From positions 1 through 17,309 of the forward strand of contig JAJHRB010000032.1 of NCBI GenBank assembly GCA_020833025.1: 17,309 nt of DNA, written 5' to 3'. This document shows, in pieces, positions 3,860 through 6,683 of this stretch (position 1 is the stretch's first letter; every line of letters starts with the position of its first letter). A program made the translations under genes and the position numbers. The notes below the pieces were generated by a model. That model worked only from the letters and a program-made list of their open reading frames with translations, did no database searches and had not been told where the DNA came from. This stretch comes from Thermoproteaceae archaeon (lineage in GTDB: Archaea > Thermoproteota > Thermoprotei > Thermoproteales > Thermoproteaceae).

Positions 3860-4846
3860 CTATTGGGCCTCTGTAAGTGCCGCTATGTACTTTCCCACTT
3901 CAATTGTCTTGCTGTTGCCGCCGACGTCCGGGGTCTTGATACCTCTCTTCAGGCTCTCCACGACGGCCCTCCTGATGGCACTAGCCGCATCCTCCCTGCC
4001 CATCCACTCGAACATCATGGCGGCGGACAGTATCGTCGCTATGGGGTTCGCGATGCCTCTCCCCGCTATGTCAAAGGCAGCGCCGTGGACTGGCTCGAAC
4101 ATTGCCTTGCTGTCGCCGATATTAGCACTCGGCGCGAGGCCTATGCCGCCGGCGACCTGTGCCGCCAGGTCTGTGAGTATGTCGCCGTACTGGTTCGTCG
4201 TGAGTACGACGTCAAAGCGAAGCGGGTCCCTCACGAGCTCCATCGCGGCCGCGTCCACGTACACCTGCTCGACCTCAAGCCCCCTCAGCTCCTCCATTGC
4301 GACGTCCCTGAAGAGGCCGTCGACAACTCTCAGCACATTGGCCTTGTGCACTATTGTGACCTTGCGCCGCCGCATCTCCGCGTAGCGCCTGGCGACTCTG
4401 GCAACGCGCCTCGTGCCCTGCGCGGTTATTACCTTCAGCGCTATTGCCACGTCGCCGACCCTGTACTCGGCGCCGACGTAGACGTCCTCGACATTCTCTC
4501 TGACGAACACGCAGTCAATCTCCTTTATCGCAGTCGCTCCCGGCAAGCTCTTGACGGGCCTTATGTTTGCGTAGAGCAAGTACCTCATCCTGAAGAACGA
4601 AGTCACGTCGTAGGCGGACTCGCCTATAGGGCCCTTGAAGATTGCATCAGCCGCGTCTGCGAGGCTGAGGGTCTCGGGGGGCATCGGCACGCCGTACTTC
4701 CTCAACGCCACGTCTCCCGCCTCGGCCGTCTTTAGCTCTAGCTCCACGCCGTATTTCCTCGCTGTCGCGTTAATTACATAAAGCGCGGCCTCGACTACCT
4801 CCGGGCCGATGCCGTCGCCTGGAATGACCAGTACCTTATACGGCAT
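3860..4846 (-). CDS. leuB: 3-isopropylmalate dehydrogenase (isocitrate/IPM/homoisocitrate dehydrogenase family)
   Basis: IPGDGIGPEV, RENVEDVY, HKANVL, NQYGDILTD, GLAPSANIG and FEPVHGAAFDIAG motifs; adjacent to leuA-like and leuD. TATA-like TTTAAG ends at 4867, 21 nt before the ATG. Confidence 0.88.
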   Translation of the reverse strand: MPYKVLVIPGDGIGPEVVEAALYVINATARKYGVELELKTAEAGDVALRKYGVPMPPETLSLADAADAIFKGPIGESAYDVTSFFRMRYLLYANIRPVKSLPGATAIKEIDCVFVRENVEDVYVGAEYRVGDVAIALKVITAQGTRRVARVARRYAEMRRRKVTIVHKANVLRVVDGLFRDVAMEELRGLEVEQVYVDAAAMELVRDPLRFDVVLTTNQYGDILTDLAAQVAGGIGLAPSANIGDSKAMFEPVHGAAFDIAGRGIANPIATILSAAMMFEWMGREDAASAIRRAVVESLKRGIKTPDVGGNSKTIEVGKYIAALTEAQ

Positions 4847-4975
4847 GCTGGCACGGCAGCGCGGAACTTAAATCAATTGGCGAGGGCGCGCCAGACGCGC
4901 CTCTGGCAGCACCCCACGGCCGGGCTCGAGACGGCGGAGCACAAGGCGCCTCGGCGAGCTGGCCCCGGAAAGTGA

Positions 4976-6123
4976 CTAGCCAACCGAGGAGGTGTGCGCG
5001 CAATATCGTGACACGATTTCCTTGAGGGCGTTCTCGTCTATCTTTGTCTTTCTCGCGGCCAGCTCCTTCACCGCTGCCATCACGCAGCTCACCAGACTCT
5101 CGGTCGGCTCTGCGCCAATGTTTTTCAGGGCCCACTCAATTGCGTGCCTCCCCGAGTGCTTCCCGAGGACTATCCTCCTGACATTGCCGACGTCCTCCGG
5201 CCTTATTGGCTCGTAGGTGAACGGGCAGTTGAGCACTCCGTGCACGTGAATCCCGGACTCGTGCGAGAAGGCGTTCTCGCCGACTATAGCCTTGTTGGGC
5301 GGCAGGGGCACGCCGAAGAGCTTGGAGACGAGGCGCGAGAGCTCGCACAGCCTCTCCAGCCTCACGCCAGTCCTGGCGCCGAGCAGGTAATGAATAGCGG
5401 CGACGACCTCCTCTAGGGCTGCGTTTCCCGCCCTCTCGCCGAACCCATTTACTACCACCTGCGCCACGTCGCTCCCGCTTTCTATTGCCGCGATTGTGTT
5501 CGCCACTGCCATCCCGAAGTCATCGTGGCAGTGCACATGTATGGGTCTCTGCGGCAGCCTCTCCCTCAAGTAGCGTATGAGATATGCCATTCTGCTCGGC
5601 GTCATCACGCCCACGGTGTCAGGCACGTTGATCTCATCGGCGCCGGCCCTTATGGCAGTCTTGTAAACCTCGGCAAGAAAGTCCAAGTCCGTCCTTGTGG
5701 CGTCCTCGGCGCTGAAGAGAACCTCGACCCCGTACGACTTTGCATACTGGATCATTTCCTGCACCAGAGAAAGTACCTCGCCCCGGCTCATCTTGAGCTT
5801 GTACTTGAGGTGTATGTCGGACGTTGCCACGAAGATGTGTACCATGTCAGCGTCGGCCGACGCCGCCGCGTCCACGTCGCCCTTAGTCATCCTGGCGAGA
5901 CTAACGACCTTGGCGCGCGCGACTTCCTTGGCAATGCGCCTTATCGCCACGAGCTCGTCTCTCGACACCGCGGCAAATCCAGCCTCTATCATATCAACGC
6001 CGGCCTCGTCCAGCGCGAGCGCTATCTGCAACTTCTCGTCAGGCGTCAGCGCAACGCCGGGCATCTGCTCGCCGTCTCTAAGCGTTGTGTCAAAGATTTT
6101 AATTACGCGAGCCCCGATGACAT
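4976..6123 (-). CDS. leuA: 2-isopropylmalate synthase-like (LeuA/HCS/CimA family, no C-terminal regulatory domain); 5' end out of frame with the predicted start
   Basis: [11 protein letters not shown] lies in frame upstream of ORF-track ATG 6064, followed by [24 protein letters not shown] and HESGIH. No ATG/GTG/TTG is in frame upstream of [12 protein letters not shown] 6123 is promoter-placed but needs a -1 shift at the 6112-6115 run. Substrate specificity is inferred from context only. Confidence 0.8.
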
Positions 6124-6143
6124 GGGCGTCGCTGCACGCATAG

Positions 6144-6174
6144 TTTTAAAGCTTGGCGGGGAAAGAATTTTTAA
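6144..6174. promoter_or_regulatory. Back-to-back divergent TATA boxes for leuA (TTTAAAA, minus, 6150-6144) and leuD (TTTTTAA, plus, 6168-6174)
   Basis: Each ends exactly 21 nt before a start codon (ATG 6123, GTG 6195). Confidence 0.65.
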
Positions 6175-6194: not shown

Positions 6195-6683
6195 GTGATA
6201 ATCCGCGGCAGGGCCCTCGTCTATGGCGACAAGATAGACACGGACGTAATAATACCGGCGAGGTATCTCGTGTACACGGATCCCGCGCTCCTGGGCCAGC
6301 ACGCAATGGAGTCTGTCGACCCCGACTTTCCCAAGAAGGCAAGGGGCGCGATAGTAGTTGCGGGCCGCGCGTTTGGAATGGGCTCCTCCAGGGAGCAGGC
6401 AGCGCTGGCGCTGAAGGGCGCCGGGGTGCTTGCAGTTATCGCTGAGAGCTTTGCTCGTATATTCTTCAGAAATGCCATTAACGTGGGCCTTCCCGTAATG
6501 CAGGTGCCCGGAATTACAAAGAGGGTGCGAGAGGGCGACGAGCTGGAGGTGAACCTGGAGAGTGGGTACTGCCTTAATCTGAATACAGGCGAGAAAATAG
6601 TGGGTAAACCTGTCACCGGCCTGCCGCTATCAATTCTGAGAGCCGGCGGCCTACTGAATTATTTGAAACAGCAAAGTAGGTAA
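6195..6683 (+). CDS. leuD: 3-isopropylmalate dehydratase small subunit (LeuD/HacB family)
   Basis: GDKIDTDVIIPARYL, FGMGSSREQA and IAESFARIFFRNAINVGLP motifs. Start placed at GTG 6195 by TATA spacing. Confidence 0.9.
   Translation: MIIRGRALVYGDKIDTDVIIPARYLVYTDPALLGQHAMESVDPDFPKKARGAIVVAGRAFGMGSSREQAALALKGAGVLAVIAESFARIFFRNAINVGLPVMQVPGITKRVREGDELEVNLESGYCLNLNTGEKIVGKPVTGLPLSILRAGGLLNYLKQQSR

Follow-up and report, generated by a model that had tools for sequence, protein, structure and literature searches.

A probable leucine-sensing frameshift leader at the leuA-like gene of a Thermoproteaceae archaeon, apparently one of a conserved class

The window considered here is a 17,309-nucleotide stretch of contig JAJHRB010000032.1 from a Thermoproteaceae archaeon (GenBank assembly GCA_020833025.1), and its subject is the 5' end of a leuA-like gene on the minus strand, where a leader of six codons opens directly behind the promoter and the enzyme is encoded in the -1 frame. 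This leader is probably a translational leucine sensor that uses hungry-codon -1 slippage, i.e., slippage of a P-site tRNA next to an A site that waits for a scarce aminoacyl-tRNA, on a leaderless mRNA. It appears to belong to a conserved and apparently unpublished class of frameshift leaders that sense amino acids; full-text literature searches, recoding reviews included, yielded no description of the device. A leucine-sensing -1 slip on GGGG had been suggested in the initial annotation of this gene, and the suggestion is now supported by conservation of the arrangement in 28 of 28 orthologues, by the paralogues of the Ile and Lys pathways and by about ten further genes in which the codon following the slip site is cognate to the pathway.

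At the leuA-like gene, the distance between the TATA hexamer and the ATG is 27, compared with a range of 25-29 in 88 ordinary leaderless genes of the same genome, and the frame opened by this ATG, MSSGLA*, contains a single Leu codon (Table 1). The synthase frame lies at -1 relative to ATG 6123 and is limited upstream by a TAA (6148-6146) within the TATA box; from this stop to the catalytic motif, ATG, GTG and TTG are all absent. As the enzyme frame has no start codon of its own, the enzyme would require a -1 change at or just after G_GGG, and a slip on G_GGG leads to a predicted product of 382 aa in total, MSSG-ARVIK.... Re-pairing would be confined to G_GGG, as CUC cannot re-pair as GCU in the A site. 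One further ATG (6139-6141, minus strand) occurs in the leader frame 2 nt past the TATA box, too close to it to be transcribed given the usual start-site spacing. The initial annotation had described the same layout (the TATA spacing, the MSSGLA* frame, and the four-G run at 6115-6112 with CUC next) as well as a catalytic frame devoid of upstream ATG, GTG or TTG; every element was found in its place, and reading the frame back to the TAA at 6148-6146 confirmed the latter claim.

The source genome is a metagenome-assembled genome (MAG) of 126 contigs and 1.56 Mb, with Pyrobaculum species as its nearest named relatives, and one extra G (G5) would bring the ATG in frame. Both circumstances suit either an assembly error at the homopolymer or recent inactivation by mutation, which had at first been considered the more parsimonious explanation. 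However, an alignment of orthologous 5' ends from every family genome carrying the gene (27 in addition to this one, from three genera, with at least 11 single-contig genomes among them) shows that the G4-plus-CTC arrangement and the out-of-frame ATG are kept in all 28. Moreover, the open reading frame (ORF) is under clear purifying selection, the third-position changes downstream of the site being synonymous. Assembly error, recent mutation and pseudogene formation are thereby ruled out, and the probability left to them is practically nil.

In each of the 28 orthologues, the TATA box is followed after 17-20 nt by ATG, one codon (three in one genus) and NCG GGG CTC, with both G_GGG and the CTC sensor codon invariant. 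The leaders comprise 6-8 codons, the 0-frame stop comes one or two codons past the sensor codon at a variable position, and the two overlapping frames always stand in the -1 relation, so that a shift is required for the product. No in-frame ATG, GTG or TTG is conserved among these orthologues, and the few that are present sit in the TATA box or farther upstream; in 17 of the 28, the enzyme frame is closed by a stop 4-16 nt upstream of the ATG. Reinitiation at ATT 6103-6101, which had been listed as a third option, is rejected on the same alignment: a start-like codon is not conserved there, the orthologues showing ATA, ATC, GTA, GTC or GTG. The stretch CGGGGCTC is invariant throughout, even at positions that are synonymous in one or the other frame, and the invariant CTC imposes on the enzyme frame GCT, which is rare among Ala codons (10%), whereas past the site the enzyme frame varies freely at third codon positions. 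Because of this invariance and the rare codon that it imposes, both frames appear to be constrained across the putative slip site, as is predicted for a shift site.

It is the comparison across genes, a pattern seen at the level of sequence, that decides how the leuA leader is probably to be interpreted. In this genome, the citramalate synthase paralogue (CimA, Ile pathway; TIGR00977 score 630 vs. a cut-off of 450) begins with ATG TCG GGG ATC, and the homocitrate synthase paralogue (HCS, Lys pathway; TIGR02146 531 vs. 413) with ATG CGC GCG GGG AAA. Family-wide, an Ile codon follows G_GGG in CimA in 25 of 25 genomes, with ATT and ATC swapped, and AAA follows it in HCS in 28 of 28, while leader length and codons vary. 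A genome-wide search, with a motif scan first and a stricter promoter-anchored scan second, retrieved the device at the further genes given in Table 1. Among these, ArgG carries TCG GGG CGA in approx. 25 of 28 genomes, and ThrC has AC(A/G) after G_GGG in 26 of 28. In relatives, the IlvB leader has as many as three G_GGG sites in a row, which precede Val, Leu and Ile codons and all open into the same -1 frame (e.g., ATG TCG GGG GTA TCG GGG CTT ACA ATG GGG ATT; orthologues L126-L153), and the first of these sites is degenerate in this genome (CCG GGA GTA; contig C116, approx. 10478). Similarly, 12 ThrC leaders (among L201-L214) possess an extra G_GGG ATT (Ile) site upstream of G_GGG ACR (Thr), and the gene for the transketolase N-terminal subunit with its Tyr and Phe sites (contig C61:20452-21434, minus strand, L061) is likely to head an aromatic amino-acid operon. 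G_GGG is invariant in the LeuA, CimA, HCS, IlvB, ArgG and ThrC leaders, and the tetranucleotide is also found in the Trp leaders. The leader of TrpE is present only where TrpE heads the transcript; where a leader is missing, as in operon-internal TrpE and in one ArgG orthologue (L196), an ordinary in-frame ATG occupies the same place.

The amino acid encoded after the slip site is retained through synonymous swaps (ATT/ATC, ACA/ACG, GTA/GTC/GTT), and the joint chance of 11 pathway-matching codons is approx. 2e-15, given the amino-acid usage of the genome. These observations bear on the possibility that the shift is real but constitutive, or that it occurs at the RNA level by the addition of a G by the polymerase in the G4 run, in which case the leader would be a quirk of expression and no sensor. 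Such an explanation agrees with the restoration of the frame by G5 and with the tiny size of the 0-frame product in all cases. Nonetheless, we consider it very unlikely, since it explains neither why 11 genes encode their own pathway's product after GGG, nor why synonymous swaps preserve that amino acid, nor why the IlvB and transketolase leaders have multiple sites. With regard to the RNA-level variant, a run of four Gs is far shorter than known transcriptional slippage tracts.

The promoter-anchored scan took in all ATGs located 24-29 nt past a TATA hexamer in the source genome; 88 of them open a long ORF, and the frame is short in 18 that have a long ORF at -1 and in only one that has it at +1. 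Several candidates were discarded. The NadB and QueE matches of the first motif scan are false positives with internal ATGs and no TATA box, and an ORF of 220 aa with a Pro codon, for which no family match was obtained, probably represents a shadow ORF opposite the thrC promoter. The 9-mer CGGGGCTCG has 68 matches genome-wide vs. 49 for the reversed control and is thus nothing special on its own. An ARAGORN inventory returned few tRNAs, and its result was not used.

Table 1. Features of the leuA-like locus (positions in the window) and further genes of the same genome with a codon for an amino acid directly after G_GGG
Feature	Position	Strand	Remarks
TATA box CTTTAAAA	6144..6151	minus	20 nt separate the box from the leader ATG
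Leader mini-ORF, 0 frame	6103..6123	minus	ATG TCA TCG GGG CTC GCG TAA (MSSGLA*)
Leader start ATG	6123-6121	minus	
G_GGG slip site (putative)	6112..6115	minus	tRNA-Gly on GGG 6114-6112 could re-pair perfectly on GGG 6115-6113
Sensor codon CTC (Leu)	6109..6111	minus	0-frame A-site codon while GGG occupies the P site
0-frame stop TAA	6103..6105	minus	ends unshifted translation after 6 codons
Main ORF, -1 frame	4976..6112	minus	378 codons + stop; short-form 2-isopropylmalate-synthase-like enzyme
LeuD/HacB-type small dehydratase subunit, divergent	6195..6683	plus	leaderless GTG start; own TATA near 6166-6174
LeuB/homoisocitrate-dehydrogenase-like gene, downstream	3860..4846	minus	ordinary ATG; own TATA at approx. 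4867-4873
IlvB			Leu codon after G_GGG in this genome
TrpE, TrpD, TrpB-like (TrpB2)			TGG (Trp) after G_GGG
ArgG, CarA			CGA (Arg) after G_GGG
ThrC			ACG (Thr) after G_GGG
Transketolase subunit			two G_GGG sites: TAC (Tyr), TTC (Phe)
Cys-synthase-like pyridoxal-phosphate (PLP) enzyme			TGT (Cys) after G_GGG
Trp-tRNA synthetase			ATG GGG TGG (Trp)

A few peculiarities of these genes should be mentioned. ArgG invariably has CGA as its sensor, and this triplet is rare, with a share of 4% among Arg codons. In Pyrobaculum genomes (L171-L187), the ArgG leader ATG is embedded in the 3' end of the preceding gene (..GAC TAT GGC GAG TAA..), so that the device would act there within an operon and not at a leaderless 5' end. 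The Trp-tRNA synthetase gene (contig C31:772-2087, minus strand, L069) has a TATA box and its ORF in the -1 frame, and the G of its ATG completes G_GGG with the following GGG; it is an ambiguous case, as an in-frame GTG occurs 5 nt past the ATG. Finally, the end of contig C98 (C98:1-240, L004) is a near-copy of the CimA start on contig C65, with promoter, leader and initial codons repeated apart from a few differences; this duplication is due to redundancy of the MAG assembly or to strain variation.

How the leuA leader would operate can be outlined as follows. The leaderless mRNA would begin at ATG 6123, and ribosomes would start there and read Ser-Ser-Gly, bringing peptidyl-tRNA-Gly onto GGG in the P site and CUC into the A site. 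They would have to start at this ATG and reach GGG-XXX in its frame, because the sensor codon is meaningful only there. If Leu-tRNA were plentiful, CUC would be decoded, the TAA two codons on would be reached, and a 6-residue peptide but no enzyme would be made. If charged Leu-tRNA were scarce, the A site would stay empty and tRNA-Gly would slip back one base on G_GGG; the new codon, composed of G and the first two bases of the sensor codon (GCU, Ala), would then lead into the full synthase. Low Leu-tRNA charging would thus raise the rate of shifting and the amount of LeuA, which is the logic of negative feedback, and the nearby 0-frame stop would remove unshifted ribosomes. In the leaders as a group, the slip would fall on codon 3-7, where the nascent chain has barely begun to grow, and slippage might be easier for that reason.

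The product of the leuA-like gene matches the HMGL-like barrel (PF00682, 309 bits) and HCS_D2 (PF22617, 88 bits) in Pfam and ends after HCS_D2; the Pfam search gave no match to the allosteric LeuA_dimer domain (PF08502), in agreement with the early remark that the C-terminal allosteric domain is missing. It is a short form, comparable to the enzymes of Sulfolobales, and profile homology begins 4-5 residues past the slip site. The scores exceed the cut-offs of TIGR02090 (LEU1_arch; 492.6 vs. 484.75) and NF002085 (2-isopropylmalate synthase, IPMS; 525 vs. 517), and the best PDB matches are a mixture of HCS and IPMS. The catalytic motif is LRDGEQ (Asp type) in the window's copy and LREGEQ in the HCS copy. 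Because the paralogues pass the citramalate and homocitrate synthase equivalogs, we infer by elimination that the window's copy is the IPMS, an assignment to which the LRDGEQ motif and the leuB- and leuD-like neighbours also point. Both neighbours (Table 1) lack a slip leader. At this locus, the device is confined to the pathway-committing synthase, and the shared LeuB- and LeuD-like genes do without one.

Several points weigh against a leucine-sensing shift. With respect to the enzyme, the narrower equivalogs are not passed, NF041069 (IPMS_Sufob) scoring 488 against a cut-off of 600, and 2-oxoisovalerate is a substrate assigned by elimination and context. With respect to the site, G_GGG comprises just 4 nt without a stimulatory structure, and ordinary ORFs do not avoid in-frame G|GGG (n = 2025, observed/expected 0.89). 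The tetranucleotide alone thus cannot be highly slippery in normal elongation, and slippage at the leaders, if it occurs, must need a position close to the 5' end, a nascent chain that is still short, or starvation at the A site. Furthermore, CUC is the commonest Leu codon of the genome (41%), which rules out a role as a rare codon. As for RNA structure, none is conserved downstream: RNAalifold on the 28 orthologues gives -1.2 kcal and three pairs, and z-scores of single-sequence folding downstream of the leuA slip site range from -1.0 to +1.7. This lack is, however, as expected for hungry slippage of one tRNA, which needs no stimulatory RNA. A GCUCGC...GCGAGC pairing noticed by eye was not recovered by RNAalifold and was dropped.

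A further point is that the cognate-codon rule would fit any mechanism that reads the leader frame. The chief alternative of this kind would treat the ATG mini-ORF as a Leu-sensing, stalling leader peptide and have the synthase started separately at a non-canonical codon, with no frameshift. Leaderless sensory short ORFs are known in mycobacteria (10.1101/834739), non-canonical starts have already been modelled for leuA by RefSeq and others (MKIFDTT..), and in-frame G_GGG is tolerated within ORF bodies. However, no near-cognate codon is conserved from the upstream stop of the enzyme frame to the FDTT motif, the candidate positions varying among ATT, ATA, ATC, GTA, GTC, GTG and TTC; on a leaderless mRNA, another ribosome entry site cannot be accommodated, and there is no RNA structure to remodel. 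Separate initiation also leaves unexplained the invariant G_GGG, the sensor codon directly after it and the constant -1 phase (18:1 over +1). It is thus regarded as unlikely, and slippage on G_GGG from ATG 6123 remains the preferred interpretation.

Outside the family, related but different arrangements are encountered. In leuA of a Vulcanisaeta/Caldivirga-like sister family (L028-L033, L051, L164-L169), the conserved 5' element is a different one, GGTG followed by GNN TAG ATT GCT C. Past the TAG, canonical starts are missing from the enzyme frame, and TTG CTY (a start and a Leu codon) is offset by +1, as is the leader in Pyrobaculum. The TAG is replaced by TGG in one genome, and an in-frame TTG is present in one genus. 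This element may be a start-codon variant of the slip, A_UUG_CUY. In the CimA gene of this family (L154-L158), a canonical start is likewise absent (GTG GTN TAG AAA TCN), and, with the Ile codon ATC placed in the other frame (GAA ATC), a +1 instead of a -1 shift would be required. HCS was not found in five complete sister-family genomes (search at E<=1e-100). In another family, a LeuA of 59% identity (G055, L050) has its ATG one base out of frame (ATG GAA TTG GTT CAC GTA GAA TAA); there the GGGG run is absent, and the Leu codon TTG comes after G_GAA.

Taken together, it appears reasonably likely that Thermoproteaceae run about a dozen amino-acid genes or operons, possibly with Trp-tRNA synthetase among them, by a general 'frameshift attenuator', in which a leaderless AUG leads through a few codons to G_GGG and a codon for the end product, and the enzyme frame is reached solely by a -1 slip under starvation. 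Multivalent leaders (Val/Leu/Ile in ilvB, Tyr/Phe in the aro operon, Ile/Thr in thrC) would then function as logical OR gates, and sister lineages may use other leuA slip sites (A_UUG_CUY in the Vulcanisaeta/Caldivirga family and G_GAA_UUG in one further genome). If so, this would be a new class of gene regulation, in which the ribosome measures the charging of one tRNA and responds by a change of frame, without the involvement of a regulatory protein, an RNA switch or a 5' untranslated region (UTR). It would also explain amino-acid feedback in those hyperthermophilic archaea that have leaderless mRNAs, which offer no space for riboswitches, T-boxes or attenuator hairpins. It was in Pyrobaculum aerophilum that leaderless transcription was originally discovered (Slupska 2001, as cited in PMC6028130).

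Public annotations already reflect the difficulty posed by this gene. The leuA N-termini disagree among entries (P0013, P0016, P0028, P0030, P0074), those of 364 aa starting after LRDGEQ. In GenBank, the P. aerophilum gene is described as 'leuA with possible unusual start codon', with the start placed after the catalytic motif; RefSeq entries use non-canonical starts, MKIFDTT or MRIFDTT; and Swiss-Prot LEU1_PYRAE begins MASGLVQ-IKIF, the leader being joined to the enzyme frame near the stop. A public Vulcanisaeta entry starts at ATT (MAQED..). As these annotations are inconsistent, gene callers would need a rule for the device.

Among known systems, the attenuators of bacteria (leuL, ilvL, trpL, thrL, pheL) are similar in logic, as a short leader with codons for the end product is translated first, and those of branched-chain genes are multivalent, as is IlvB with Val, Leu and Ile. 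However, bacterial attenuators operate through alternative hairpins and a transcription terminator, and their leader is separate from the gene, whereas the leuA leader has one sensor codon, overlaps the gene and would be fused to it by the shift. Terminator and antiterminator hairpins are absent from the leuA leader, which overlaps the gene and shows no conserved structure in RNAalifold on the 28 orthologues. In bacteria, prfB (RF2) regulates itself by a +1 frameshift that takes place at an in-frame stop codon and is stimulated by a Shine-Dalgarno-like sequence upstream. Its likeness to the leuA leader lies in a 0 frame that ends early, a slippery P-site codon beside an A-site codon whose decoder is sensed, and a full protein that is made by the shift when the decoder is scarce. 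The leuA leader would differ in its -1 direction, in a sense codon and an aminoacyl-tRNA as the thing sensed, in the lack of a 5' UTR, and in the occurrence of the same layout at many genes with different sensor codons.

Other parallels come from leaderless or frameshifted genes. In mycobacteria, polycysteine leaderless short ORFs form a 'ribulon', in which stalled ribosomes open a structure that hides the next ribosome-binding site (bioRxiv 10.1101/834739). These are also leaderless sensory mini-ORFs that head amino-acid operons in a ribosome-coordinated regulon with no protein regulator; unlike the present leaders, they are bacterial and work without a frameshift. Within archaea, fucA1 of Saccharolobus solfataricus is the sole cellular -1 frameshift listed in two recoding reviews, one of them from 2021 (PMC8211752). 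It resembles leuA, as interpreted here, in being a cellular archaeal gene that requires a -1 shift, but its A_AAA_AAT heptamer joins two ORFs in the middle of the gene, and no sensing role or regulon is known for it; if the present reading is correct, archaeal cellular -1 frameshifts would go from one gene to a regulon. The leuA site does not have the canonical programmed -1 heptamer X_XXY_YYZ, as re-pairing would take place at the P-site GGG alone, nor a conserved hairpin or pseudoknot 5-9 nt downstream, according to RNAalifold on the 28 orthologues. In mammalian cells, start-codon-associated ribosomal frameshifting (SCARF) is a loss of frame at early codons after initiation that is raised by amino-acid starvation (bioRxiv 10.1101/2023.02.15.528768). 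In contrast to the leaders described here, SCARF is global, proceeds via eIF5B degradation, yields mostly out-of-frame 'noise', is not codon-specific and is not required for a given enzyme.

A mechanistic relative is the hungry-codon -1 shift of E. coli (Gallant and Lindsley 1992), which PMC8211752 and PMC5009743 present as a starvation-induced error in laboratory constructs. As outlined in the former, the P-site tRNA alone slips -1 to an identical or nearly identical codon when the A-site aminoacyl-tRNA is scarce, and no stimulatory RNA structure is needed. The natural use of such shifting was called unclear in a 2016 recoding review. The leuA-type site is alike in that its P-site codon, GGG, can re-pair fully one base upstream and has no stimulator, and it differs in that it appears to form part of the opening codons of native genes, is kept throughout a family and corresponds to the product of the pathway. 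Should the proposed sensing hold, hungry-codon frameshifting would be a programmed natural mechanism and not a laboratory error.

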